Shown here in pieces: positions 1 to 12,736 of a stretch of DNA of 25,108 bases (positions are counted from its first letter, which is position 1; each line of letters starts with the position of its first letter). The DNA is from a virus (Duplodnaviria > Heunggongvirae > Uroviricota > Caudoviricetes): IMG/VR virus record IMGVR_UViG_2778261181_000003. The stretch is one strand, 5' to 3'. The notes beneath the pieces are model-generated. The model was not told the origin of the DNA, searched no databases, and was given only the letters and a program-made list of their open reading frames with translations. Both the position numbers and the translations under genes were made by a program.

Positions 1-1032
1 TCAAAAACTTGCTATTGATGTTGGTAGTGTTGCCAGCGGATTAAACCGTAATGCAGTTTCCAGGTGATCCGGTGCCAGATGTGCGTAACGCATAGTCATT
101 TTTATATCGTGATGCCCGAGAATTTTTTGTAAGGCCAGGATATTTCCACCCGACATCATGAAGTGCGCCGCAAACGTATGGCGCAGAACGTGTGTCAGTT
201 GACCGCGAGGGAGCACGATAGACGTTTTTTCCATCACGGATAAAAATTGAAAATAGCAGTCTGTAAAGAAATTGAACCCATCAAGCGCCATGATCTCTTC
301 GTAAAGCTCTTTACTGATAGGGATGCTTCTGTTTTTCTTCCCCTTCGTTCTTACAAAGGTAATTCGGTATTTGGTCACCTGTGAGCGGGTAAGATTTACG
401 GCTTCACGCCAACGTGCGCCTGTGCTTAAGCATATCTTAACTACCAGTGCCAGAATTGGGTCCTGACGTTTGCAATCAGCCAGCAATTCAACAATCTGCT
501 CATGGGTAAGCCATGCCATCTCTTTTTCTGCGATGGTGAATTTTCGCATGTTCTCCAGTGGGTTTGGATACGACCATTCGCCCAGGCGGGATAGTTCGCT
601 AAAAACACTACTTAGATAGCTTTGCTCCAGGTTAATGGTGACCGGGCTGGCTCCTTTCTTCCATTTCTCGCTGAAGTAGATCTCACCTGTCAGGCGTTTA
701 TCTCGATAGTGGGCAAACATTTTAGAGGTGAGATTGGTTGCAAGAGGATTGCCTAGAGCGTCAACCATCAGCAGCAATTTGTCATAGACATGCTGCCCAG
801 CAGTCAGAGATTTACCATGTAATTTGAACCATAGCTCAACCACGTCTTTCAGGGTTCGACGATCCACTGATTCGCCCAGCCAGGGCTTTGATTCGGTTTC
901 TTCCATCGTGTGACGCTCAAAAGCCAGAGCTTCGCCTTTGGTGGCGAATTGTTTACGCACACGACGCCCACTTCTTCCGGCGGGGTAACATTCGCAAAGC
1001 CATTTCCCTGTGGTGAGTTTTCGTACTGCCAT
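1..1032 (-). CDS. int: Phage integrase, tyrosine recombinase (P2/186 Int-like); ATG at 1030-1032, stop at 1-3
   Basis: 343-aa product from the internal ATG with GGAGGG RBS 8 nt upstream; C-terminal tyrosine-recombinase motifs visible (LSTGARW, HVLRHTFAAHF, LGHHDIKMTMRYAHL); sits leftmost next to the repressor as in P2/186 prophages. The 395-aa track ORF starts at an upstream non-ATG codon and is probably over-extended. Confidence 0.9.
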   Translation of the reverse strand: MAVRKLTTGKWLCECYPAGRSGRRVRKQFATKGEALAFERHTMEETESKPWLGESVDRRTLKDVVELWFKLHGKSLTAGQHVYDKLLLMVDALGNPLATNLTSKMFAHYRDKRLTGEIYFSEKWKKGASPVTINLEQSYLSSVFSELSRLGEWSYPNPLENMRKFTIAEKEMAWLTHEQIVELLADCKRQDPILALVVKICLSTGARWREAVNLTRSQVTKYRITFVRTKGKKNRSIPISKELYEEIMALDGFNFFTDCYFQFLSVMEKTSIVLPRGQLTHVLRHTFAAHFMMSGGNILALQKILGHHDIKMTMRYAHLAPDHLETALRFNPLATLPTSIASF

Positions 1033-1220
1033 AAAAAATGCCCTCCAGTAGAGAGCATTTTTACTGTATGTATAACCAGTGTCAATGTATGAAATCCTAC
1101 GACCATACATCTCACTGAAGCCATAATGAAGTTGGCTATTCTTTTTGCTATGTGAGCATGTAACTTTTGCGGTTAACCTGCGGCTCATTTTTATTTTAGA
1201 CGCAGATATAAAAGCAAAAG

Positions 1221-1412
1221 TTATCGTGAGTTTTTAGTACAGATTTTTTTGGATTTACTAATAGTTCCATCATTGCAAACGAATTTGCCATCTGAGGTAC
1301 AGTGAGAAACACCTCCCTTTTTCCCTGAGCAGGGATAATTTCTAGCATAGGTAGTTAGTGGGTTTAATAACAAAGAACATGACAAAACCACAAAAAATAC
1401 CTTACCAAGCAT
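1221..1412 (-). CDS. Small predicted secreted cysteine-rich protein (63 aa), function unknown
   Basis: ATG at 1410-1412 preceded by GGGAGG RBS, only 15 nt downstream of the CI stop (same strand, looks translationally coupled); N-terminal hydrophobic signal-like segment then about 40 residues with 4 Cys. No family recognised. Confidence 0.5.
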
Positions 1413-1427
1413 AGTTTCCTCCCGGTA

Positions 1428-2084
1428 CTATTTAACATACTTGACTGTTAAACTTATAATTTTACCAATTATTTCAATGTCTTCTATCTTGCATTCGAAG
1501 GCTCTGTTTCCACCCTCGACGAAGATTCTTCCACCGGGTAAACGAGTAATGTCACGGATCGTTATTTCGCCATCAATACTTATTACCCATTTACCATCAC
1601 GTATATCATCAAATTCTTTATCACAAATAAATTCAGAATTGTTATCTGTGATGACAAAAGGTTTTTTAAACGTAGAGGGTAGAAATCCCTTATCAAAAAT
1701 ATAAAAACCGTCTTTCTGCAATGCTCCATCAGACAATAAATATTTTTCTACTTCTATAGTATTTGTATTTGCTGATGCTTGCTTTGAACCATGCCCTGTT
1801 GTTAGCCAATTAAGCGAGGTGCCCGTTTCAAGGGCGCACTGGATTACCCAATCTGCTGGAAAAATATCACGCATATAGCGCGTTGCCATGGTGCTCTTAG
1901 AAACACCTAAATGATCACAGAGAGCCTGACGGGTACCGAACCCATATGCTTCAACTAAACGTTCTATGGCTTTCTTACCGCCGCTATTGAAATCCACAAG
2001 TCCTCCAAAGAAATCCAAAATTCGTTGACAGATTCCAAAAGCGATCTTAAAGTTGAACCAGAAGTGTTCTTTTGGAGCCTTCAC
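1428..2084 (-). CDS. cI: Phage 186 CI-type immunity repressor (HTH DNA-binding N-terminus)
   Basis: Segment IERLVEAYGFGTRQALCDHLGVSKSTMATRY ... CALETGTSLNWLTTGHG resembles the N-terminal HTH region of 186 CI as I recall it; transcribed divergently from apl/cII toward int. True start uncertain: no in-frame ATG near the N-terminus (GTG at 2082-2084, TTG at 2016-2018 or GTG at 1995-1997 are candidates). Confidence 0.75.
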   Translation of the reverse strand: MKAPKEHFWFNFKIAFGICQRILDFFGGLVDFNSGGKKAIERLVEAYGFGTRQALCDHLGVSKSTMATRYMRDIFPADWVIQCALETGTSLNWLTTGHGSKQASANTNTIEVEKYLLSDGALQKDGFYIFDKGFLPSTFKKPFVITDNNSEFICDKEFDDIRDGKWVISIDGEITIRDITRLPGGRIFVEGGNRAFECKIEDIEIIGKIISLTVKYVK

Positions 2085-2142
2085 TACTAATCACGACAAA
2101 CAACGGCTCGCCACAAGCCATATCTAGAAGGAATGTTGCCTT

Positions 2143-2346
2143 ATGACACCTAACATTTCAATTACTCTGAATACACCACATGTCACAATCGAACGTTATA
2201 GCGAACTGACTGGCCTTTCTATTGATACGATTAACGACATGTTGGCTGATGGCCGACTACCTCGTCATCGTCTTCGTAAAGACAAAAAACGTGAAAAGGT
2301 AATGATTAACCTGGCTGCTCTGACTGTTGATGCTTTGTCTGCTTAA
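2143..2346 (+). CDS. apl: Apl/Cox-like excisionase and switch regulator (67 aa)
   Basis: Small basic protein, first gene of the rightward operon divergent from cI and directly upstream of cII, matching the 186 apl position. Confidence 0.65.
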
Positions 2347-2410
2347 TAGACGTCTATTTTCACAATAAGACGCTGAGTTCGATTTTGCGATAAGTTCGGA
2401 GTTGAAAACC

Positions 2411-2920
2411 ATGTTTGATTACCAAGTTTCCAAACATCCACATTTTGATGAAGCCTGTCGTGCATTCGCACTGCGCCACAACCTGGTGCAACTGGCAGAA
2501 CGTGCAGGCATGAATGTGCAGATTCTGCGGAACAAGCTGAACCCAGCTCAACCTCATTTATTAACCGCACCAGAAATCTGGCTGCTTACCGATCTGACTG
2601 AAGATTCAACGCTGGTAGACGGTTTTCTGGCACAGATTCATTGTCTGCCATGTGTACCGATTAATGAGGTGGCAAAAGAGAAACTGCCACATTACGTCAT
2701 GAGTGCAACCGCAGAGATCGGGCGTGTTGCTGCAGGTGCGGTATCTGGCGATGTAAAAACCAGTGCAGGTCGTCGTGATGCCATCAGCAGCATTAACTCT
2801 GTAACACGACTGATGGCACTGGCTGCTGTTTCATTGCAGGCCCGTTTACAGGCTAACCCTGCGATGGCGAGTGCAGTTGATACCGTAACTGGCCTCGGTG
2901 CTTCATTCGGTTTGCTGTGA
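2411..2920 (+). CDS. cII: Phage 186 CII-like lysogeny establishment regulator (169 aa from ATG 2411)
   Basis: Position immediately after apl; length from the first ATG matches the 169 aa I recall for 186 CII; GGAG upstream. Track ORF begins at TTG 2402. Confidence 0.7.
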
Positions 2921-2927
2921 GGTGCTT

Positions 2928-3224
2928 ATGCTGACGAAAGAACCATCATTTGCATCGCTGCTGGTAAAACAAAGCCCGGCAATGCACTACGGTCACGGCT
3001 GGATCATGGGTGAGGATGGTAAACGCTGGCATCCATGTCATTCACAAGATGAATTGCTGTCTGAATTGACCACGAGGAAACGGAGAAAGTCAAAATGTAT
3101 GCAGCGGAAAGTGAAGTGGTTTATCAGTTTCGTTACAGAGGGGAAAGTTATTCAGTACCTGAAGATGATTTGCTCTGTTGTTATCCGTCGTTGTCGGGCG
3201 ATGGCAGTTACTTTTTCACGCTAA
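2928..3224 (+). CDS. Hypothetical early protein (possible fil/dhr-region gene); 3' extent uncertain
   Basis: ATG at 2928 with GAGGTG RBS overlapping the cII stop; N-terminal 55 aa look protein-like, but the 3' third overlaps ORF 3095-3319 in another frame and looks like out-of-frame sequence. Confidence 0.35.
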   Translation: MLTKEPSFASLLVKQSPAMHYGHGWIMGEDGKRWHPCHSQDELLSELTTRKRRKSKCMQRKVKWFISFVTEGKVIQYLKMICSVVIRRCRAMAVTFSR

Positions 3225-3319
3225 GGGATGGGACGTTTTTACGGGGAGAGCAGGTTAAAGAAACGATACGAAAAAATGTATCTCCTCTTGAACGTTACCG
3301 TAAGAACAAAGAACGATAG
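3095..3319 (+). CDS. Hypothetical early protein (74 aa)
   Basis: ATG at 3095 preceded by GAGGAAACGGAG RBS; well-formed charged small protein; overlaps the previous ORF by about 130 nt. Confidence 0.45.
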   Translation: MYAAESEVVYQFRYRGESYSVPEDDLLCCYPSLSGDGSYFFTLRDGTFLRGEQVKETIRKNVSPLERYRKNKER

Positions 3320-3341
3320 TTGCGTTTTGGGGATATGAATT

Positions 3342-3683
3342 ATGGCAATTAATGGCGCTGCGGCGACTGTTCCATTAAGCCCCGGTGAACGCCTGAATGG
3401 ACTTAATCACATTGCGGAGTTAAGGGCGAAAGTATTTGGCCTGAATATTGAGTCAGAGCTTGAGCGGTTTATTAAAGATATGCGTGATCCACGGGATATC
3501 AATAACGAACAAAATAAACGAGCACTGGCTGCCATATTCTTTATGGCAAAAATTCCAGCTGAACGTCATAGCATCAGCATTAATGAGCTGACCACTGACG
3601 AAAAGCGGGAGTTGATTAAAGCAATGAATCATTTTCGTGCAGTGGTGAGCTTATTTCCCAGACGGCTAACCATGCCGAATTAA
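3342..3683 (+). CDS. Hypothetical early protein (113 aa)
   Basis: ATG with upstream GGGGA; clean ORF in the early operon between cII and the replication gene. Confidence 0.55.
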   Translation: MAINGAAATVPLSPGERLNGLNHIAELRAKVFGLNIESELERFIKDMRDPRDINNEQNKRALAAIFFMAKIPAERHSISINELTTDEKRELIKAMNHFRAVVSLFPRRLTMPN

Positions 3684-3750
3684 CCAATAAATAAAATTCA
3701 TGGCGTAAACCCGCCGGGCATCCCTTTATCTAAATTCAGGAGAATTGATT

Positions 3751-3984
3751 ATGCGTAATATTGAAACCCTCACGACTAAAACCGGACCGGATGATGCAGG
3801 TCTTAATCTTTTACTGACAGAGGCCCGACTTGAAGAACGTCGGGCAAGGGCTGAGGCAATGGCTGCCCGCCTTGATAGCCTGGCGTGTCATATCACATCC
3901 CGCCAGCTAAACCACGTCGAAGCAGCAGAACTGCTGCGTGTGACCGCTGAAGCAATCCAGAACGAAGCGCAGGAGATCCACTAA
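3751..3984 (+). CDS. Hypothetical early protein (77 aa from ATG 3751)
   Basis: ATG at 3751 with CAGGAGA RBS 7 nt upstream; stop overlaps the start of the next gene (TAATG). Confidence 0.55.
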   Translation: MRNIETLTTKTGPDDAGLNLLLTEARLEERRARAEAMAARLDSLACHITSRQLNHVEAAELLRVTAEAIQNEAQEIH

Positions 3985-4211
3985 TGGCTGATGCAATGGA
4001 TCTCGTACAGCAGCGCGTTGAAGAAGAACGCCAGCGCCATATCCGTGCTGCCCGTGCCAAAACACCGGGCGTGTCTCGCGTGCTTTGCATTGAATGTGAA
4101 GCACCAATTCCGCCAGCACGCCGCCGTGCCATTCCTGGAGTGCAGCTTTGCATTACCTGTCAGGAAATCGCAGAGCTGAAAGGCAAACATTACAACGGAG
4201 GTGCTGTATGA
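3984..4211 (+). CDS. TraR/DksA-family C4 zinc-finger protein (75 aa)
   Basis: Four-cysteine pattern CIECE ... CITCQ with Arg-rich linker typical of phage TraR/DksA-like proteins; stop overlaps the dam ATG (ATGA). Confidence 0.7.
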   Translation: MADAMDLVQQRVEEERQRHIRAARAKTPGVSRVLCIECEAPIPPARRRAIPGVQLCITCQEIAELKGKHYNGGAV

Positions 4212-5065
4212 GCACCATCCTGAAATGGGCGGGAAATAAAACCGCAATTATGTCCGAACTGAAAAAATACCTACCTGCTGGCCCGCGACTGGTTGAACCT
4301 TTCGCGGGTTCCTGTGCTGTGATGATGGAGACGGATTACCCCAGCTATCTGGTTGCGGATATTAATCCTGATTTAATCAACCTCTATAAAAAGATTGCCG
4401 CTGATTGCGAGGCGTTTATATCGCGGACCAGAACTTTGTTTGAGGAAGCAAACAGTGACCTAGCTTATTACAACATAAGGCAGGAGTTTAATTACTCAAC
4501 TGAAATTAATGATTTCATGAAAGCGATATATTTCCTGTATCTCAATCGTCATGGTTACCGTGGGTTATGTCGCTATAACAAGAGCGGGCATTTCAACATT
4601 CCCTACGGTAATTATAAAAATCCGTATTTCCCTGAAAAAGAAATTCGCGCATTTGCAGAAAAAGCCCAGCGGGCAACGTTTATCTGCGCCAGCTTTGATG
4701 AAACGCTGGCGATGTTGAAGGCGGGGGATGTGGTGTATTGCGATCCGCCGTATGACGGCACGTTTTCCGGTTATCACACTGACGGCTTCACTGAAGATGA
4801 CCAGTATCACCTGGCATCCGTTCTTGAATATCGATCATCAGAAGGTCATCCGGTCATTGTTTCTAACAGTGATACATCCCTGATCCGTTCGCTGTATCGC
4901 AATTTCACTCACCACTACATCAAGGCAAAACGCAGCATCGGCGTGTCAGCTGGCGAGAGTAAATCTGCAACAGAAATCATTGCTGTTTCCGGGTCGCGCT
5001 GCTGGATGGGATTTGATCCTTCGCGTGGCGTGGATAGTTCTGCTGTGTACGAGGTGCGTGTATGA
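4208..5065 (+). CDS. dam: DNA adenine methyltransferase, Dam family (N6-adenine MTase)
   Basis: N-terminal LKWAGNK motif (AdoMet binding) and catalytic DPPY motif in the translation; ATG at 4208 overlapping the upstream stop; 3' end overlaps the A gene start. Confidence 0.85.
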
Positions 5066-7476
5066 GTCATGACGATATGAGCAACTCTAGCGGCTTTAAC
5101 GAGGCTGCCGCAGCATTTTCATGGAACGGCCCGAAAAAGGCCATTAACCCTTATCTGGATCCGGCGGAAGTTGCGCCGGAGTCTGCACTTTCAAACCTGA
5201 TCACTCTGTACGCTGCCGATAACGAGCAGGAACAACTGCGCCGCGAGGCACTGAGTGAGCAGGTCTGGGAGCGTTATTTCTTTAATGAATCCCGTGATCC
5301 TGTCCAGCGCGAAATGGAGCAGGATAAGCTCATTAGCCGGGCAAAGCTGGCGCATGAGCAGCAGCGTTTTAACCCGGACATGGTCATTCTGGCAGATGTC
5401 AGCGCCCAGCCTTCTCATATCAGCAAGCCGCTGATGCAACGTATCGAATACTTCAGCAGCCTGGGCAGGCCAAAGGCTTATTCCCGCTATTTGCGTGAGA
5501 CGATTAAGCCATGTCTGGAGCGACTGGATTGTGTACGTGACAGTCAGCTATCTGTTTCTTTCCGTTTTATGGCAAGCCATCAAGGGCTGGAGGGGCTGCT
5601 GATCCTGCCTGAAATGAGCCAGGATCAGGTGAAACGCCTGTCCACCCTGGTAGCAGCGCATATGAGCATGTGTCTTGAGGCCGCTTGTGGTGATTTGTAC
5701 GCCACCGATGACGTTAAGCCAGAAGAAATCCGCAAGACATGGGAAAAGGTGGCTGCGGAAACCCTGCGTCTGGATGTTATCCCGCCTGCGTTTGAGAAAC
5801 TTCGTCGGAAAAGAAACCGCCGCAAACCTGTGCCCTATGAACTCATACCGGGTTCGCTGGCACGTATGCTTTGCGCCGACTGGTGGTATCGAAAATTGTG
5901 GAAGATGCGTTGCGAATGGCGGGAAGAGCAGTTGCGTGCTGTCTGTCTGGTCAGCAAAAAAGCATCTCCCTATGTCAGCTATGAAGCAGTGACGCATAAA
6001 CGTGAGCAGCGCCGCAAGTCGCTGGAGTTTTTCCGTTCTCATGAACTGGTGAACGAAGACGGAGACACGCTGGATATGGAAGATGTGGTAAACGCCAGCA
6101 GCAGCAACCCGGCACATCGCCGCAATGAGATGATGGCCTGCGTTAAAGGTCTGGAGCTTATCGCGGAAATGCGCGGTGACTGCGCCGTTTTCTACACCAT
6201 CACCTGTCCGTCACGTTTCCATTCCACGCTCAATAACGGCAGACCAAACCCGACCTGGACAAATGCGACGGTAAGACAAAGCAGTGATTATCTGGTCGGC
6301 ATGTTTGCTGCATTTCGTAAGGCGATGCACAAAGCCGGATTGCGGTGGTATGGCGTGCGGGTGGCTGAGCCGCATCATGACGGTACTGTGCACTGGCATC
6401 TCATGTGCTTCATGCGTAAAAAAGACCGCCGCGCCATCACTGCATTACTGCGTAAGTTTGCCATCCGTGAAGACCGCGAGGAACTGGGCAATAACACGGG
6501 GCCACGCTTTAAGTCTGAGCTGATTAACCCGCGCAAAGGAACGCCGACAAGCTACATCGCGAAATACATCAGTAAGAACATTGACGGGCGTGGTCTGGCT
6601 GGCGAGATCAGCAAGGAAACGGGTAAATCCCTGCGTGATAACGCTGAATACGTTAATGCCTGGGCGTCTCTGCATCGTGTTCAGCAATTCCGCTTCTTTG
6701 GCATTCCGGGGCGTCAGGCTTACCGTGAACTGCGATTGCTGGCTGGTCAGGCGGCAAGGCAGCAGGGTGACAAAAAAGCAGGTGCGCCGGTACTGGATGA
6801 TCCGCGTCTTGATGCCATTCTGGCTGCTGCTGATGCTGGCTGTTTTGCCACCTACATTATGAAGCAGGGCGGCGTGTTGGTTCCCCGCAAATATCACTTG
6901 ATCAGAACCGCTTATGAAATCAACGAAGAGCCGACCGCCTATGGTGATCACGGTATTCGTATTTATGGCATCTGGTCACCCATTGCAGAGGGCAAGATCT
7001 GCACTCATGCAGTGAAGTGGAAAATGGTTCGTAAGGCCGTTGACGTTCAGGAGGCGGCAGCCGACCAGGGCGCTTGCGCCCCTTGGACTCGTGGCAATAA
7101 CTGTCCCCTTGCTGAAAATTTGTACCAACAAGGGAAAGACAAATCAGCTGATGGAGATACCAGAACGGATATCACCCGTATGGATGACAAGGAGTTGCAC
7201 GATTACCTGCACAGTATGAGCAAAAAAGAGCGCCGGGAACTGGCAGCAAGGTTACGCCTGGTGAAACCGAAACGGCGTAAAGACTACAAACAGCGAATTA
7301 CAGATCATCAGCGACAGCAGCTCGTGTATGAACTGAAGTCCAGGGGATTTGATGGCAGCGAGAAAGAGGTCGATTTACTCCTTCGCGGCGGCAGTATTCC
7401 GTCAGGAGCAGGCCTGCGTATCTTCTATCGGAACCAGCGTTTGCAGGAAGATGATAAGTGGCGGAACCTGTATTAA
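5062..7476 (+). CDS. A: Replication initiation endonuclease A (rolling-circle initiator, P2 gpA-like)
   Basis: 804-aa protein with HUH-type motif ([13 protein letters not shown]) and paired-tyrosine motif ([10 protein letters not shown]) as in the phiX174 A / P2 A superfamily; position after the early genes matches P2/186. Confidence 0.85.
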
Positions 7477-7545
7477 TTACGCGGGTTAACAATTCGTGCT
7501 CTTAATAATACCAGGCATTTCTGGCTGATGAACGTAAAAAAACGT

Positions 7546-7588
7546 TTTACATCAGTAAGATTATTATATACTGTAAATATAAACAGTG
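7546..7588 (+). promoter_or_regulatory. SOS-regulated promoter: LexA box tACTGTaaatataaACAGtg (7569-7588) overlapping a sigma70-like -35 TTTACA / -10 TATACT
   Basis: CTGT-N8-ACAG with AT-rich spacer, mismatches to the consensus TACTGTATATATATACAGTA at only three positions; about 40 nt upstream of the RBS and ATG of ORF 7629. Confidence 0.65.
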
Positions 7589-7628
7589 GTTATGTATACA
7601 GTATCGCTTTGGTGTCATAGGAGGAAAG

Positions 7629-7817
7629 ATGCAGGACTATTTTTTGGAGTCTTTGAAGCTCCAGCGCATTGATTTTTTTCTTAAGCTTGTAGCGGCTAGT
7701 GAGTGTAGTGATGAAGAGAAGGGGCTGGCTCTGCAGTGGGTTTCTGAATTGACTGATGAACTCATGGCAAAAATCAGAACCCACGAATACAACCGCTCAA
7801 TGGATGTCATCAGTTGA
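7629..7817 (+). CDS. Small protein downstream of the LexA box (62 aa); possible Tum-like antirepressor N-terminal module
   Basis: Strong RBS AGGAGGAAAG before the ATG; the location after gene A and under a LexA box matches the 186 tum locus. Sequence identity to Tum not verified. Confidence 0.5.
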   Translation: MQDYFLESLKLQRIDFFLKLVAASECSDEEKGLALQWVSELTDELMAKIRTHEYNRSMDVIS

Positions 7818-7827
7818 GGTGACTTTT

Positions 7828-8061
7828 ATGCGCATTGAAATAATGATCGATAAAGAGCAGAAGATTAGCCAGTCTACCCTGGACGCCCTTGAATCCGAGC
7901 TTTACCGCAATCTGCGCCCCCTGTATCCCAAAACGGTAATTCGTATCCGCAAAGGTAGCTCTAACGGTGTGGAACTGACCGGACTGCAACTGGATGAAGA
8001 AAGAAAACAAGTGATGAAAATTATGCAGAAAGTGTGGGAAGACGACAGCTGGCTGCATTAA
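7828..8061 (+). CDS. DinI-family protein (77 aa)
   Basis: Resembles E. coli DinI in length and pattern (MRIE..., acidic C-terminus ending WEDDSWLH versus DinI ...WESADDWF); GAGGTGA RBS; same operon as the LexA-box promoter. Confidence 0.75.
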   Translation: MRIEIMIDKEQKISQSTLDALESELYRNLRPLYPKTVIRIRKGSSNGVELTGLQLDEERKQVMKIMQKVWEDDSWLH

Positions 8062-8205
8062 GAAACGTTGCCTCCAGGAGGATTCATTCTGATGGGGGCT
8101 AGTTTGGGCAACGAGTGAAACGAGGCGTAAGGTGGGCGGGCATTTTGATAAGTGATCGTCCGCTTTGTGCTAGAAGCGGTCGTTACCGCTTCAGCACTTT
8201 GTTAA

Positions 8206-10065
8206 TTAGTGAGGGCTGGTTATTACGTAGTCGCTCTGGTCATCCTCTCCCAGCCTCTCAGGTATTAAATCGTTGAAGGAAATAGTATTACTCTTAGGTT
8301 TTTCTTCAATTGGAAGTTCAGCTACCCTTAATTTGAGCGGCATGGGGCAGACGATACCACTAAAAATACAGGTTCCTGTAGATAGCGTTGGAATCGACTC
8401 TTCAGTCAGTCGATCTATATATGATACTGATTTTTCAATTGCGTACAGATCATTCTGATTAATAAGGCGATGAATAAAATAATTGTGTGCTTGGGATATG
8501 ATTGTCGACGATATATCATTAGGGCGTTGACTGGAAATTGTGATAAAAACTCCAAATTTTCTCCCCTCCTTTATGATTTCCTCAAAAGTTTCCAGACGAT
8601 AATCTCTCCAACTTTCCGTTTCCCGAAAAGAAGTATTAGACAAAATATTGTGGGCTTCATCTATAATGATGTGCAGTGTAGATTTCTCTGTAGACATTTT
8701 CTTCATATTGTAAGCCCACTTGGCTATCAAAAGAGGAAGCGTTTTTTTCATGGTTATATTAACCATATTTAGATTCACAACCGTGAAATTATGTTCACCC
8801 CAAAAGTCAGACTGTCCGGAAGTATCAAATATTTTGGCTATATCTTTACGGTTAGCACTCATTCTATTTATAACTGGTGAAATATGTTCAGGGTTAGACT
8901 TGTTAGATAAATATTCCTGTATTAACTGTAAGTACATAAAGTCCAACAGTTCTTCAATCATATCAGTTTTAAATGAAAAATTGCTTGCAAGACTGAATAG
9001 ATAGGAGCGCTCAGTATCAGCTTCTGTATTGAAAATACTACCACCCCTCAATTTCCATTTATATGCAGTTGAATGATACTCAAGATCAGATATAAGTTCT
9101 GGGTCATCTTTGAAAATTGGGCTAAGAAACTGATTTATAGTATCGCATTTGGGTTTGTCGCTACTAAAGAGATTTTGTCTGACTTTTTTCTTCAGGATAT
9201 TGCGCATAAACTCAAGAGGATTATCAGCAGTCATCACTTTCTTGCGAAACTCAAGAACTCTCTTCAGGAAAGGTTTCTGTGTTTTGTCTGTTGCATCGGT
9301 TAGAACTGAGAGCATATCATGCTCAAGTAGAACCTCTCTGGGTAGAGGAAGTTTGTCACCATTTGCATGGTGCGTGTTGAGATTATAAACCGTCTTCTCG
9401 TCAGTAATACAGCGTGGGGCAGTATATTCTCCATTAAAGTCGAATAGAATAAATTTGCATCTTTCACTAAAGTGGTTGCCGAGAATATGTTTAACTTGGG
9501 CAATACCTGCTTTGTATAGCGCGGCTAGGGTATTTGACTTTCCGCTGCCTGTATTACCGAAAATGGCAATGTGGGAATTAATAAGACCATTGATTGGTAG
9601 TGCAATTTCAATATCTTCAAGATCTGTACGAGTAAACCTCATTACAGTTTCGTCTGCATCAGCTATCTGATGAACCGTCTGTATCATCTCTTCAGTTACC
9701 ACGAAGACTTCATTGCCGATGAGAGGTAGTTCACGCGAACCACCAATGAAGCAACCAGTACGATCAATGTAACCCGTAAGAGTAGAGGTCAGGTATCGCC
9801 GATATCGCCAGGCATCACTGCCGCTCCCAGCGAGATGTTTTTCCTCAATGATTCGTTCCGCTTCAACCTTGCCGATCAGGCTCATGAAACCTTTTTTGAT
9901 CTCAATGAAGCTACCCACTGATACATTTCTTAGAACTTTTCCCTGATAAAACAAGTCACTGAGATTTTTGTTTTTATCGACCAAAATTGTCACAGCGCGT
10001 CCAGAAACCTCACAGACTTCGCCTATACGGAGCACCGCTTCCTCTTCAGTAAAATGCCTGCTCAT
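8206..10065 (-). CDS. HerA-like ATPase (FtsK/HerA superfamily), partner of SIR2 in a SIR2-HerA anti-phage system
   Basis: Walker A GNTGSGKSNT and Walker B HIIIDEAHNI in the translation; ATG at 10063-10065 overlaps the SIR2 stop (ATGA) with GGGAGG RBS; AT-rich relative to the phage backbone. Confidence 0.8.
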   Translation of the reverse strand: MSRHFTEEEAVLRIGEVCEVSGRAVTILVDKNKNLSDLFYQGKVLRNVSVGSFIEIKKGFMSLIGKVEAERIIEEKHLAGSGSDAWRYRRYLTSTLTGYIDRTGCFIGGSRELPLIGNEVFVVTEEMIQTVHQIADADETVMRFTRTDLEDIEIALPINGLINSHIAIFGNTGSGKSNTLAALYKAGIAQVKHILGNHFSERCKFILFDFNGEYTAPRCITDEKTVYNLNTHHANGDKLPLPREVLLEHDMLSVLTDATDKTQKPFLKRVLEFRKKVMTADNPLEFMRNILKKKVRQNLFSSDKPKCDTINQFLSPIFKDDPELISDLEYHSTAYKWKLRGGSIFNTEADTERSYLFSLASNFSFKTDMIEELLDFMYLQLIQEYLSNKSNPEHISPVINRMSANRKDIAKIFDTSGQSDFWGEHNFTVVNLNMVNITMKKTLPLLIAKWAYNMKKMSTEKSTLHIIIDEAHNILSNTSFRETESWRDYRLETFEEIIKEGRKFGVFITISSQRPNDISSTIISQAHNYFIHRLINQNDLYAIEKSVSYIDRLTEESIPTLSTGTCIFSGIVCPMPLKLRVAELPIEEKPKSNTISFNDLIPERLGEDDQSDYVITSPH

Positions 10066-11105
10066 CTCGAGCCTCCCAGATAGCACGTGATAATGTTATT
10101 CATTACCGGAAAATCAACATTTCTTCCCGGCCGATAAATAATCTCTACGTTTGAGTAATCCCGAAATTTCTCCATAAAGCCGTTAACACTGGCCTCATCG
10201 AAAGCAAAGATCAGTAGCTTCAGGGTGGCGTTGCGCAGGGCTTTTTTAGTTATCGTTTCAATGTGCTCATCAGCAAACGAGAACCCAAAGACAATTAGTA
10301 AAGTTGCTTCTTTATCAAGCTCGTTGGAATAGGTTCTCAGTAAATCATAATAAACGTTCTGTAGTAGAGTCTCTTTAAACTTCTCCTTACGTGGAAGAAT
10401 AAGTGCATGAGCAAGTACCCATCCTTTCATTTCGGCTAGGGTGGGAAAGTCAAGCGGCTTAATATCTGCAATACGATAAATGATTTTCCCTTTAGAATGC
10501 TGCCAAGAGAGCGAACCATGAAGTTTTATAAGGTTAACAGTAGGAAGCTCAACTTTATAATTATACAGATTTCCGGTTGCACTTACAGAATGATTAAAGC
10601 TACCCGCATCAAATTCCGCATCTCCCAAAATACTTGCTCTTCTATTGAATCCATCATTAAAAAGAATATTGTTATTACGTGTGGCAGCTTCTTCGATGAA
10701 TAAATCATAATTAGTTGTAAAAACGTTAATACGCCTCGGAAGTAGGCCAGTTCGGCGGCGGGTCAGTATCTTTTCCAGTGAAGACATAAATGCATCATAA
10801 TTTGCACGGGTACATTCCAAATCGGTGATCACCTGAGGTGCGAAGGGGGTGCCGTAGCCGCGCTTCAACATGCATTCATGAGGTAGCCAAACATCTGACA
10901 AAAAGTCAGCTGCCATCCTTAAGTATTCATCTTCCTGTTCATCATTAATAAGCTGCTGAAGATCCGTTTCGATTGTCCCCAGTACTTTAATCGCTGGGAG
11001 GGATGCACCTGATCCGATGAGAAAGTTAATGTTAGCTGACTGAAATATCCGCTCTAAGTAGTCTCGGTCACTATCGTTACCGTAGTATGCGCGCTTGACT
11101 GCCAT
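10062..11105 (-). CDS. SIR2-domain protein (predicted NADase effector) of a SIR2-HerA anti-phage system
   Basis: Translation shows glycine-rich NAD-binding loop FLIGSGAS, the SIR2 TNYD motif (VFTTNYD) and a downstream KLHGS histidine; ATG at 11103-11105 with AAGGA RBS; immediately upstream of and coupled to the HerA gene. Confidence 0.8.
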   Translation of the reverse strand: MAVKRAYYGNDSDRDYLERIFQSANINFLIGSGASLPAIKVLGTIETDLQQLINDEQEDEYLRMAADFLSDVWLPHECMLKRGYGTPFAPQVITDLECTRANYDAFMSSLEKILTRRRTGLLPRRINVFTTNYDLFIEEAATRNNNILFNDGFNRRASILGDAEFDAGSFNHSVSATGNLYNYKVELPTVNLIKLHGSLSWQHSKGKIIYRIADIKPLDFPTLAEMKGWVLAHALILPRKEKFKETLLQNVYYDLLRTYSNELDKEATLLIVFGFSFADEHIETITKKALRNATLKLLIFAFDEASVNGFMEKFRDYSNVEIIYRPGRNVDFPVMNNIITCYLGGSR

Positions 11106-11529
11106 CTTATCCTTCCACAAAACATTGGATTAGTCTGTAATTTATTTAATCTTAACGCCGAGCTCAATACTTTAACATCACTTCTTCTGGCGATTGCTAT
11201 GAGCCCTTCTTGATAAAAAGTTCGATCGGGAAACTGATCCTTTATGCCACAAGTTTTCTAGCTATCCTCAAAAAATTGGTGTTAAAACTGTGCCAACAAA
11301 GTTGCAAGGTTCGCTTCTCGCTCACAGCGAACTTTCATCTTTGTAAACCCGTATGATTCGCTTTTCAGCAGTCATTCAGATACGGATTTACGCTTCCCTT
11401 GGCAGCGCATGACTATGACGCATGAGATCGCATGATCGTTTGAGGATCGTTTTTGCTGAAGTCAGCCAGAACTGGCGTGCTTTTGCTTATGTCATGCAGG
11501 TGCATGAAAACCACTACATAAAGCGGGCA

Positions 11530-11549
11530 GGCGTGGCGGGGATACGAGC
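11530..11549. other. Candidate cos (cohesive-end) site of the P2/186-type phage
   Basis: GGCGTGGCGGGGATACGAGC: the first 13 nt match the 186 cos overhang as I recall it (GGCGTGGCGGGGAAAGCAT; P2 GGCGAGGCGGGGAAAGCAC). Lies in the non-coding gap between the right-end cargo and the portal side, where cos is expected in a prophage. Confidence 0.4.
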
Positions 11550-11674
11550 GCGCGCTTAAGGATAAATTGAAGTTGATTTAATTTTTCGACATGGATAATC
11601 TTAACTACGTATGATTATTGATAAAAAATAAACATAAACAATTGTAGCGGATCTTAAAACTTATTAGGATTAGT

Positions 11675-12736
11675 ATGCTTAAAACAAATAAGGTATTTAT
11701 TGACACACAAACGTACGTAAAGGCTGGTCTTCATTTTGAGGGGGTAGCATTTAAAGCTTTCCATGAATTATGTGCGAAAGGTGATTTAGTCTTAATTACA
11801 ACTACAGTTGTAGAGAGAGAAGTAAAAGGTAAAATAGAGGAATCAATAAAGGATGCTCTGCAGGCTATAAACACAGTACAAAGAAAAGCTAGGCTTTTGA
11901 ATAGTATTGATAATGGACCGCTCCATGGTTTTTTTCAGCAATTTAACGAACATGAAATTCACGAAGCAGCACAAAAAGTTTTTGATGATTTTTTGAAAGG
12001 ATGTCACGCCAAATTAGCTACAATAGAAGTGATAGATCTTAATGAGGTTTTAGATAAATACTTTGGCAAAGAACCACCATTTGGGCAAAATAAGAAAAAA
12101 AGTGAGTTTCCTGATGCAATCACTTTAGCTGCGGTAGAGCGATTTGTTAATGATGAAGATGTGTATATCATTTCTGAGGATAGTGACTTAAAAAATTATT
12201 GTGATGGTAAAAACAATCTTCATCAAATTGATTCACTTGATAAGTTTCTAGGTGAATACAATACGCATACAAACGAATTAAGTAATAAATTGATGCAGTT
12301 TATCGAAAGCAAACGTGAAGACATAAGAGCGGACGTAATTGCCCAACTCAATGATGCCGATGGATATAACGTTTCAACTTGGGAAGACGCTGAATTGGAT
12401 TCATTTGAAGTCGTCAATATTGATGACTTTGAACCATCAATAATTAAGATTGACAATAATTATTGTCTAGCGACCTTCTCTGTTTCTGTAGATTTTGAAG
12501 TTACTGTTTCTGGTCCAGACTTTAATAATGGGTATTGGGATAGCGAAGATAAAGTAATGATTCCAATGGAGACAACCACACGAACTGAAGTTCAAGAGAT
12601 TAGTTTCGATATTGAAATTGAAGTTATGTATGAAATCGAGGATGGTGAATTAACAGATATCGCATTTGATGTGAATATTGATAAGTTATCCCGAGGGATT
12701 GAGTTCTCTATTGAAGAAAATAATTTTGAATATTAA
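11675..12736 (+). CDS. PIN-like nuclease-domain protein with acidic C-terminal domain of unknown function (353 aa); candidate defence or abortive-infection gene
   Basis: N-terminal half has a PIN-type acidic-residue pattern (KVFIDTQTY, VVEREV, EFPDAITLAAVERF, VYIISEDSDL); C-terminal about 170 aa is D/E-rich and beta-like; very AT-rich gene with its own 550-bp upstream region and a strong downstream terminator. Confidence 0.7.
   Translation: MLKTNKVFIDTQTYVKAGLHFEGVAFKAFHELCAKGDLVLITTTVVEREVKGKIEESIKDALQAINTVQRKARLLNSIDNGPLHGFFQQFNEHEIHEAAQKVFDDFLKGCHAKLATIEVIDLNEVLDKYFGKEPPFGQNKKKSEFPDAITLAAVERFVNDEDVYIISEDSDLKNYCDGKNNLHQIDSLDKFLGEYNTHTNELSNKLMQFIESKREDIRADVIAQLNDADGYNVSTWEDAELDSFEVVNIDDFEPSIIKIDNNYCLATFSVSVDFEVTVSGPDFNNGYWDSEDKVMIPMETTTRTEVQEISFDIEIEVMYEIEDGELTDIAFDVNIDKLSRGIEFSIEENNFEY

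Follow-up and report, generated by a model that had tools for sequence, protein, structure and literature searches.

Why do temperate phages of enterobacteria carry a second GATC methylase beside the Dam enzyme of the host? The selective benefit of such an enzyme is not obvious, because enterobacterial hosts already have Dam. Phage-carried orphan GATC adenine methyltransferases include T4/T2 Dam, P1 Dam (Dmt), HP1 Dam, and VT-2 Dam (PMC7556043). Here the question is raised by a dam-like gene in a stretch of viral DNA of 25,108 nucleotides, which was analysed as a whole and is called the window in the following. The reading that we regard as likely is that the gene encodes an orphan phage Dam that acts on GATC, that it is optional cargo in a CI-repressed early lytic operon, and that its product keeps replicating phage DNA methylated.

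A dam-like gene in the early operon of a 186-like prophage

The window represents a 186-like (P2-like, Peduoviridae) E. coli prophage with integrase, CI, CII, Fil, gpA, cos, portal, terminase, and capsid genes. Pfam matches were obtained for integrase, CI, CII (CP76), DUF2732, TraR, GPA, DinI, and portal, and the synteny is that of 186/P2-like phages, i.e., int-cI / apl-cII-fil-...-zinc finger-(cargo)-A, followed by a DinI/Tum-like gene, cos, portal, and terminase. The initial annotation had described the gene as phage-borne and had placed it in an early/replication operon, between a TraR-like zinc-finger gene and the replication initiator A. All of this was borne out, as integrase, CI, CII, Fil, gpA, cos, and structural genes are present, and dam lies in the unit equivalent to apl-cII-fil-...-A of phage 186. 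The features of this unit are:

2025..2053, + strand: candidate early lytic promoter, pR-like, TTGACA-17-TAAAGT (consensus scan, 10/12 match)
3984..4211, + strand: TraR/DksA-type C4 zinc-finger gene, conserved left border of the slot that contains dam (PF01258, E=3e-11; TIGR02419)
4197..4201, + strand: GGAGG Shine-Dalgarno motif of dam, within the 3' end of the TraR-like gene (read from the sequence)
4208..5065, + strand: dam-like gene, N6-adenine DNA methyltransferase with GATC as predicted target (PF02086, TIGR00571, EcoDam PDB match, AF2 fold)
5062..7476, + strand: gpA rolling-circle replication endonuclease, right border of the slot (PF05840, E=3.5e-128)

The dam-like open reading frame extends on the + strand from ATG 4208 to TGA 5063-5065 and encodes 285 aa (ORF listing and reading of the sequence). 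The spacer between GGAGG (4197-4201) and ATG 4208 comprises 6 nt. A longer version that begins with TTG 4148 was rejected, because 105/105 aligned family members share the N-terminus that begins at ATG 4208, which is therefore taken as the real start. The upstream zinc-finger protein scores 65.8 bits with TIGR02419, versus a cut-off of 59.7. The start and stop codons overlap on both sides of dam, as had been claimed: ATG 4208-4210 of dam overlaps TGA 4209-4211 of the upstream gene 3984..4211, and ATG 5062-5064 of A overlaps TGA 5063-5065 of dam, in both cases within the sequence ATGA. The GC content of dam is 46.5%, versus 53-55% in its two neighbours.

The candidate pR-like promoter is located between the divergent genes for CI (1428..2084, - strand) and an apl-like ORF (2143..2346, + strand), as is the case for pR of 186. 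Judged by this position, it would drive the apl-like gene, cII, fil, ..., traR, dam, and A. A promoter and terminator scan of the region 1900-8400 yielded fewer promoter-like sites than were found in shuffled sequence and gave no convincing candidate for a dam promoter inside the operon, and an Rfam scan of the whole window gave no match to any RNA family.

A variable slot between the zinc-finger gene and A

At position 4214, i.e., at the start of dam, the nucleotide homology with phage 186 breaks off. The slot between the DksA-like gene and A has a different content in each of several relatives. In 186 it contains orf82-orf84, which encode an exonuclease-like protein, a DUF5405 protein, and a PAPS reductase and are all annotated as "not essential"; in P2 it contains only DUF5405 (orf83). 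In a relative from Kluyvera it is occupied by Dam together with a C5-cytosine methyltransferase, and in the relative L077 it is empty and TraR abuts A directly. The genes of 186 and P2 share with dam the operon, the slot, and the overlap of the last gene with the start of A, but the proteins are unrelated to Dam, so that the slot content has been swapped and is not homologous. Dam is thus optional cargo in a variable, non-essential slot between the zinc-finger gene and A, and, because relatives have an empty slot or unrelated genes at this place, it is dispensable for this type of phage. HP1, one of the phages known to carry a Dam, is itself a P2-like phage.

The close packing raises the possibility that dam is a passenger of little enzymatic importance, retained chiefly as an open reading frame from which ribosomes pass on to the essential gene A, the start of which it overlaps. 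The ATGA overlaps on both sides would fit such a function, as would the location of the GAGG ribosome-binding site of A within the last dam codons and the statement in the phage 186 record that A apparently cannot be translated unless orf84, upstream of it, is translated to its end. In addition, the C-terminal 25 aa, which EcoDam lacks, show partial conservation (W266, G268, D270, G274, D276, V283). However, the catalytic and cofactor-binding residues are invariant in family members down to 70% identity, which would be unexpected for a spacer, and L077 manages with TraR abutting A and without any cargo. We regard this explanation as extremely unlikely and favour an active enzyme.

The presence of swappable DNA-modification genes next to the replication initiator suggests that the slot might serve P2-like phages as a small self-protection or anti-restriction locus, which would be distinct from the known defence hotspots of these phages near cos.

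The gene encodes an orphan Dam-type adenine methyltransferase

The dam protein matches PF02086 with E=4.5e-76 and 256.4 bits over profile positions 1-253/253 (cut-off 22 bits), and it reaches 320.7 bits with the TIGR00571 "dam" model, versus a cut-off of 114.85. The sequence matches in the PDB include EcoDam (1e-72), DpnM (6e-34), and T4Dam (4e-17), all three of which are GATC enzymes. By its sequence, the gene is a real and intact gene for a Dam-type (D12, alpha-class) N6-adenine DNA methyltransferase, an assignment far beyond chance. The proposal that it belongs to the Dam family was thereby confirmed, and both motifs on which it had been based were found:

4220..4240, + strand: N-terminal LKWAGNK motif, aa 5-11 (EcoDam alignment; invariant in 106/106 family sequences)
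4556..4615, + strand: target-recognition hairpin, aa 117-136 (residue mapping onto EcoDam)
4742..4753, + strand: catalytic DPPY (motif IV), aa 179-182 (sequence, family alignment)

DPPY represents the catalytic motif IV, (D/N)PP(Y/F), and aligns with D181-Y184 of EcoDam and D171-Y174 of T4Dam. The AdoMet-binding elements K6, W7, F32, G34, and D51 correspond to K9, W10, F35, G37, and D54 of EcoDam and are invariant in the family; the first two belong to LKWAGNK, and K6 is the equivalent of the residue that contacts the first G:C pair. D51 is the acidic residue of ADIN. Motif I (FxGxG-like) has the sequence FAGSC, with Cys in place of the second Gly, a position at which T4Dam has Leu. The codons GAT CCG of the DPPY motif themselves include a GATC site.

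The fold expected of the Dam family, a Rossmann-like core with an inserted helical/hairpin DNA-recognition domain, was recovered in an AF2 model of moderate confidence (mean pLDDT 69, pTM 0.69), in which the hairpin region of aa 121-140 reaches a pLDDT of only 51-61. A foldseek comparison of the model with known folds retrieved EcoDam (E=4e-25, TM 0.83), DpnM (1.5e-17), and T4Dam (2e-14).

The protein shares 45% identity over 264 aa with the Dam of E. coli K-12 (M.EcoKDam; PDB 2G1P, 4RTJ), including DPPY, the AdoMet-binding residues, and the GATC contacts K9, Y119, L122, R124, P134, and Y138, and both are orphan enzymes. It differs from E. coli Dam by the replacements N120 to R and R137 to N, a deletion of five residues after DPPY, and an extra conserved C-terminal tail of about 25 aa. 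The genomic contexts are also different: the host gene is part of the chromosomal damX-dam-rpe region, whereas the window gene lies in the early lytic operon of a phage. The score of 284.6 bits with the Dam equivalog model NF008152 is below the cut-off of 441, and therefore the protein is not the housekeeping Dam orthologue. Other phage enzymes are more distant. T4Dam can be aligned over the whole length, with F111, M114, R116, and P126 as hairpin equivalents, but the identity is only about 21-23% (foldseek), and its first G:C pair is read by R130 and not by K9 (PMC4417163). The P1-like Dmt has about 36% identity to the window protein.

In PADLOC the protein is matched best by the orphan-methyltransferase model PDLC03729 (E=5.5e-110). 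The initial annotation had noted that a cognate restriction gene is missing from the neighbourhood, and indeed dam is flanked by the TraR-like gene and A, and no restriction endonuclease gene was found in the window. It follows from the lack of an adjacent restriction gene that dam encodes an orphan enzyme. Apart from a SIR2-HerA pair and a PIN-domain gene, located 3-7 kb away from dam, the window contains no defence genes. The arrangement TraR-like gene / dam / A is likewise annotated in E. coli and Klebsiella prophages.

Residue conservation and predicted GATC specificity

The contacts of EcoDam with its recognition sequence are known: R124 reads the G of base pair 4, L122 and P134 are responsible for pair 3, Y119 intercalates, K9 and Y138 recognise pair 1, and N120 makes a base contact (PMC4417163). 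Six of these seven residues are conserved in the window protein, i.e., R122, L120, P132, Y117, K6, and Y136, while the seventh, N120, is replaced by R118. Except for K6, the six are located in the hairpin of aa 117-136, which also harbours R118. Conservation was analysed with a family alignment of 106 sequences with 70-100% identity, in which the equivalents of K9, Y119, L122, R124, P134, and Y138 are 97-100% conserved; L122 (97%) and P134 (99%) are the only ones that are not invariant. Further conserved residues are, in EcoDam numbering, DPPY, D54, W10, R95, N126, N132, and R249. This conservation strongly suggests GATC specificity, and the dam protein most probably methylates GATC.

Two DNA-facing differences from EcoDam are found throughout the family, namely N120 to R and R137 to N or H. 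They might permit methylation of extra, non-GATC sites and thereby a broader anti-restriction cover than that of host Dam. A relaxed or shifted specificity would be in line with the presence of R118 in 106/106 family members, at a position where EcoDam has a base-contacting Asn, and with the attraction of the slot for other DNA-modification genes, such as the C5 methyltransferase in Kluyvera and the PAPS reductase in 186. Precedents exist as well: T2/T4 Dam and some prophage enzymes methylate non-GATC sites too, and some prophage adenine methyltransferases are non-specific (PMC7556043; M.EcoGI-type, PMC4659465). On the other hand, the residues for GATC base pairs 1, 3, and 4 are all conserved, the three closest solved structures are those of GATC enzymes, and in the alignment the N120 position of T4Dam, which is also GATC-specific, is occupied by a third residue, Ser. 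The N120 position therefore varies among GATC enzymes. Taken together, a relaxed specificity seems decidedly improbable, and GATC is retained as the predicted target.

Proposed role of a GATC-specific phage Dam

The initial annotation had offered three possible roles, namely protection of phage DNA from restriction, a change in host regulation, and the timing of replication or packaging. In the explanation favoured here, both the timing of expression and the benefit for the phage are inferred. Transcription of dam from the pR-like early promoter would begin only upon infection or induction. Via the two ATGA overlaps its translation would be coupled to that of its neighbours, and the enzyme would appear along with gpA as rolling-circle replication begins. 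When host Dam becomes limiting, the extra Dam would keep the fast-accumulating phage DNA fully methylated at about 100 GATC sites per 25 kb. Progeny genomes would thus exit the cell protected from restriction enzymes that cut unmethylated GATC, and their DNA would not linger in the hemimethylated state that is recognised by host MutH and SeqA. Full GATC methylation of fast-replicating DNA is our best guess for the benefit to the phage and represents the weakest step of the explanation.

The window contains 99 GATC sites, compared to 98 expected from a mononucleotide model or 119 from a Markov model, and GATC is mid-table among the palindromic tetramers. There is neither avoidance nor enrichment of GATC in the window. 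That GATC is not avoided fits protection by methylation rather than by loss of sites.

A different role, in line with the change in host regulation suggested initially, would be a lysogenic conversion, in which Dam expressed from the prophage raises the total Dam activity and alters mutation rate, phase-variable promoters, and replication timing of the host. In enterobacteria all three are affected by Dam dosage, which gives this idea a general plausibility. However, dam lies in the middle of the counterpart of the CI-repressed early lytic operon of 186, the scan of 1900-8400 revealed no internal promoter on the dam strand, and host Dam already methylates host GATC sites almost fully. Moreover, a different Dam-like prophage gene is transcribed at a very low level in the lysogen (PMC4659465). 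Effects of host Dam on prophages have been reviewed (PMC7380047). A conversion of the lysogen by this gene is very unlikely, and methylation of replicating phage DNA remains the preferred role.

GATC sites at the replication origin and at cos

The sites of interest for replication timing and packaging were mapped as follows:

7070..7100, + strand: predicted ori (gpA nick region) inside gene A (from the ori positions of P2, 29892, and 186, 28576, via gpA protein alignment)
11530..11548, + strand: cos site, GGCGTGGCGGGGATACGAG (matches 186 cos GGCGTGGCGGGGAAAGCAT)
11426, 11434, and 11445 (within 11426..11448), + strand: three GATC in the conserved cos-left arm, possible Dam targets (-104, -96, and -85 from cos)

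The predicted ori, with the conserved core ...GGACTCGTGGCAATAACTGT, maps to about position 7084. The GATC sites closest to it are those at 6996 and 7303, and none is present within about 85 bp. Four GATC sites are found at 6799-6996, a grouping that chance produces about once per window. There is thus no GATC cluster at the mapped ori and no support for an oriC-like control or for replication timing.

The cos site sits in a conserved non-coding patch (11312..11556). In phage P1, TGATC(A/G) repeats have to be methylated by Dam for pac to be cleaved; this role of Dam methylation has been demonstrated for P1 and is not known for P2-like phages. A similar control in the window would mean that terminase recognises or cuts cos efficiently only if the cos-left GATC repeats are methylated, so that packaging is coupled to methylation. 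The GATC sites at -104, -96, and -85 adjoin GCATG repeats, which are present in 186 too. Two to four GATC sites are found in the arm in 62/63 dam-positive loci of the portal lineage of the window, in contrast to zero or one in 49/50 dam-minus loci, most of which belong to the 186 portal lineage. Loci of the 186 lineage have no GATC at -96/-85, and P2 has none. In addition, the pair GATCGTT-N4-GGATCG is invariant in 9/15 species-level dam-positive loci, despite an arm identity of about 68%.

Nevertheless, the arm is devoid of GATC in six of the 15 species-level dam-positive loci (Tatumella, two Erwinia, two Kosakonia, and Winslowiella), and L077, which has no dam, keeps the full GATC pattern. 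The contrast is essentially one between two or three lineages and hence does not provide independent evidence. Several further blocks of the cos region are invariant like those that contain the GATC bases, so that these bases may be just part of a protein-binding repeat, and host Dam would methylate the cos-left GATC sites anyway. The association between dam and cos-proximal GATC sites is therefore striking within two lineages, but it becomes weaker when the species-level dam-positive loci and L077 are included; it is incomplete and confounded by lineage, and it offers weak support for a link to packaging. A P1-like control of packaging is unlikely. By analogy with P1 pac, the phage Dam and the direct repeats GATCGTT-N4-GGATCG, which are one helical turn apart and 85-96 bp left of cos, might in particular form a methylation-sensing packaging checkpoint, which appears quite improbable. 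If the GATC pair near cos were indeed methylation-sensitive, dam would be linked to packaging, and a checkpoint of this type would add a novel level of control to cos-type packaging in the P2 family.

Occurrence and known relatives

An identical protein is already present at NCBI (WP_089641409.1, "DNA adenine methylase"), and the gene was found in 1239/5426 complete E. coli genomes. It is a common and already annotated prophage gene, ordinary and already known, and the finding as it stands, that a prophage gene of very wide occurrence was correctly annotated, matters little.

A protein of 285 aa with 93% identity has received the name "retron EC67 DNA adenine methylase" from its source, an annotation and not a test. 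A Dam methylase function of the retron-Ec67 element is reportedly announced in the title of an article by Hsu, Inouye and Inouye in PNAS in 1990. The Ec67 element and the window thus have in common a 186-like prophage and a Dam of 285 aa, a likeness that is drawn from the source annotation and a secondary citation and not from the original Ec67 sequence. They differ in the cargo region next to cos, where the window has SIR2-HerA and not a retron. In the passage of PMC7826664 that cites Hsu et al. (1990), retron-Ec67 is described as a 34-kb, 186-related prophage element reported to encode a Dam methylase function. The same article describes a Klebsiella prophage with an 858-bp DNA adenine methylase gene after TraR/DksA, in the same gene order, and relates it to the Ec67 element (PMC7826664).

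Another candidate relative was M.EcoMIV, a prophage "Dam homolog" of E. coli EC958 with a recognition site that had not been determined (PMC4659465). Its identity with the window gene was rejected, because the P2-like prophage of EC958 does not contain dam. The adenine methylase gene of the Mu-like prophage of EC958 has 765 bp (254 aa); it is most likely M.EcoMIV, which is hence not the window gene.

Position and Reading Frame of the dam Gene

The window is a 186-like (P2-like) prophage with the following layout:

1..1188, minus strand, integrase
1428..2084, minus strand, CI repressor
2025..2053, candidate pR-like consensus promoter, assigned purely by its position equivalent to 186 pR
after CI, an apl-like ORF, followed by CII, Fil, DUF5347 and DUF2732
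3984..4211, TraR/DksA zinc-finger gene
4208..5065, plus strand, dam, from the ATG at 4208 to the TGA at 5065 (285 aa)
5062..7476, gpA
3' of gpA, a DinI/Tum-like gene, then the cargo region with the SIR2-HerA defence pair, then cos
8206..10086, minus strand, HerA, anti-phage defence pair with SIR2
10062..11120, minus strand, SIR2, anti-phage defence pair with HerA
11312..11556, conserved non-coding patch that includes cos
11426, 11434 and 11445, three GATC sites, 85-104 bp left of cos
11530..11548, cos
11675..12736, plus strand, PIN_12-domain protein (353 aa; PF16289, E=1.5e-25), between cos and the portal gene
beyond the PIN-domain gene, portal, terminase, capsid, lysis and tail genes

The assignment of dam to an early/replication operon in the initial annotation is in agreement with the gene order, which places it between the TraR/DksA gene and gpA and matches apl to A of phage 186; the 186 record describes the counterparts as an early lytic operon that is repressed by CI and has pR as its promoter. 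The reading frame of 4208-5065 and its two overlaps were likewise recovered from the sequence: the dam ATG forms an ATGA overlap with the TGA of the upstream gene, its TGA a second one with the ATG of the downstream gene. A GGAGG ribosome-binding site can be read six bases 5' of the dam ATG, and that of gene A is carried by the last codons of dam. A longer reading from TTG 4148, present in the ORF list, was rejected because all 105 relatives begin with one and the same N-terminal sequence. One GATC, at 4742, lies inside the DPPY codons (GAT CCG), and another, at 2043, in the spacer of the pR-like promoter, within the CI/operator region.

Protein Family and Predicted Specificity

The proposed membership of the product in the Dam family of adenine methyltransferases was substantiated at several levels. 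The D12-class N6-adenine methyltransferase domain PF02086 is covered over its full profile (E=4.5e-76), the curated Dam-family model TIGR00571 scores 320.7 bits (cut-off 114.85), and both motifs named initially are present, LKWAGNK at residues 5-11 and DPPY at residues 179-182. The best sequence matches among solved structures are E. coli Dam (EcoDam, E=1e-72), DpnM (6e-34) and T4 Dam (4e-17), all three GATC-specific, and a fold search with a moderately confident AlphaFold model (pLDDT 69) retrieved the same enzymes (TM 0.83 for EcoDam). The identity to K-12 Dam is 45%, and the score of 284.6 for the housekeeping Dam orthologue model is below its cut-off of 441; therefore, the protein is a Dam-family enzyme, not the chromosomal Dam. 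About 25 C-terminal residues that EcoDam lacks are partly conserved within the family.

In EcoDam, R124 reads the G of the fourth base pair, L122 and P134 the third pair, and K9 and Y138 the first pair, while Y119 intercalates and N120 forms a base hydrogen bond (PMC4417163). In the comparison with characterised Dam enzymes suggested in the initial annotation, the equivalents of R124, L122, P134, Y119, K9 and Y138 are all kept; among 106 family sequences these positions are 97-100% conserved (L122 97%, P134 99%, the others invariant). The exception is N120, which is replaced by Arg in every one of the 106 sequences. T4 Dam has Ser at this position, and thus it varies among GATC-methylating enzymes. 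The position of R137 is Asn or His in the family. AdoMet-dependent N6-methylation of adenine in GATC is a prediction with good support from homology.

A Variable Slot Upstream of Gene A

Judged by comparison with 186 and P2, dam fills a variable slot between the zinc-finger gene and A. Phage 186 has three genes there (L006, 24890-26747), for an RNase T-like exonuclease, DUF5405 and PAPS reductase, all annotated as not essential, whereas P2 has only DUF5405. In L077, a close IMG/VR relative, the slot is empty and TraR adjoins A. In a Kluyvera sichuanensis prophage (L176:9103-11874), Dam and a C5-cytosine methyltransferase are accompanied by two small genes, and a DUF3850/ASCH protein is encoded there; an Atlantibacter prophage has Dam and a gene of unknown kind. 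The nucleotide match to 186 breaks off at position 4214 of the window, in the first dam codons, and dam is less GC-rich (46.5%) than the genes on either side of it (55% and 53%). According to the 186 record, translation of A apparently needs translation to the end of the preceding gene, and the ATGA overlap suggests the same coupling in the window. The slot is a small swappable locus, and it may represent a cargo site for DNA modification or self-protection, apart from the published P2 defence hotspots.

Prevalence and Earlier Descriptions

The exact protein is deposited as WP_089641409.1, "DNA adenine methylase [Escherichia coli]". Among 5426 complete E. coli genomes, 1239 carry dam at an identity of at least 80%, and in nearly all of them the same two neighbours are annotated. 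The gene also occurs in 56 phage records of the databases, for the most part P2-like prophages of Klebsiella (~95% identity); relatives of 70-94% identity occur throughout Enterobacterales. A 93%-identical member of 285 aa bears the source name "retron EC67 DNA adenine methylase". Haemophilus phage HP1 is also P2-like. Phage-encoded Dam enzymes have been reported for P1, T-even phages, VT-2 and HP1 (PMC7556043). The retron-Ec67 element is a 34-kb 186-related prophage, reported in 1990 to encode Dam methylase function (Hsu et al., as cited in PMC7826664); a Klebsiella prophage with identical gene order includes an 858-bp adenine methylase gene (PMC7826664). The initial annotation was correct and its interpretation sound; dam of the window is a commonplace prophage gene that is annotated widely and has been described before.

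The 90%-identity cluster holding this Dam contains both Dam and gpA sequences and is represented by a gpA of 804 aa. Databases also contain Dam fusion entries of 472-496 aa with PF05954 and of 414 aa with PF06891 and PF05840, which probably stem from read-through at the ATGA overlap, by frameshift or in assembly, and from prophage rearrangement. Cluster and fusions are artefacts of the databases, and annotations transferred from them could be misleading.

Possible Role of dam

Because of its operon position and overlaps, dam would be expressed during lytic growth only, co-translated with the replication initiator. The additional Dam activity would keep phage DNA generated by rolling-circle replication fully methylated when host Dam is limiting; this would shield the DNA in progeny particles from enzymes cutting unmethylated GATC, and would also let it escape host functions acting on hemimethylated DNA. 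This benefit is the role we favour, and it is the weakest link of the interpretation. Consistent with it are the lack of GATC avoidance (99 sites in the window versus 98-119 expected), the other DNA-modification genes in the slot of relatives, and the orphan status of dam. The latter, proposed initially, agrees with the best PADLOC match, an orphan-methyltransferase model, and with TraR/DksA and gpA as flanking genes. As to replication timing, the origin was placed via the gpA alignment at ~7084, where the core of the P2/186 ori can be made out; no GATC is present within ~85 bp of it, and no significant cluster was found.

The GATC sites near cos raise the question of packaging. The conserved cos patch is present in 1277 of 5426 E. 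coli genomes, mostly unannotated, and its three GATC sites are interleaved with GCATG repeats, which also occur in 186. Of 63 loci in the window's portal lineage that carry dam, 62 have two to four GATC in the cos-left arm; of 50 loci without dam, most of which belong to the 186 portal lineage, 49 have none or one. 186-lineage loci have no GATC at the window's positions, and P2 has none in this arm. The direct-repeat pair GATCGTT-N4-GGATCG at -96/-85 is invariant in 9 of 15 dam-carrying prophages of different species; the other six species-level loci have no GATC in the arm, and L077, a dam-lacking relative of the window's lineage, has kept all sites. Overall, most relatives with dam have the pair, and neither 186 nor P2 does. 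The GATC bases sit in invariant blocks, like other blocks of the cos region, and therefore their association with dam is partial and largely explained by shared ancestry. Methylation-linked packaging via these sites, by analogy with the Dam-dependent cleavage of P1 pac, is a hypothesis to which we assign a low probability.

Cargo Genes and Immunity Region

The SIR2-HerA pair (PADLOC E=6e-211 and 6e-267) is flanked by the DinI-like gene and cos and lies in a cargo region that is the known P2 hotspot near cos (PMC9122126, PMC13586616). Retron Ec67 has the same place in its own element, whereas L001, a closely related prophage of E. coli 65COLEC, carries other cargo there, ImmA/IrrE and a hypothetical protein. 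The PIN_12 gene has a very low GC content (33.7%; GC3 25%), and its product had no match in PADLOC or PHROG; it may occupy a second sub-slot of this hotspot, as a defence or toxin gene not yet characterised.

The immunity region (1090..2107, CI and apl-like genes) is wholly different in L001; outside of it the two prophages are 96-98% identical, with dam and the rest of the early operon in common, a pattern typical of immunity modules swapped between mosaic genomes. Between integrase and CI, at the position of 186 orf69, a 63-aa ORF (1221..1412, minus strand) encodes a hydrophobic, signal-peptide-like N-terminus and several cysteines, and may be a moron gene for a small secreted protein or lipoprotein.
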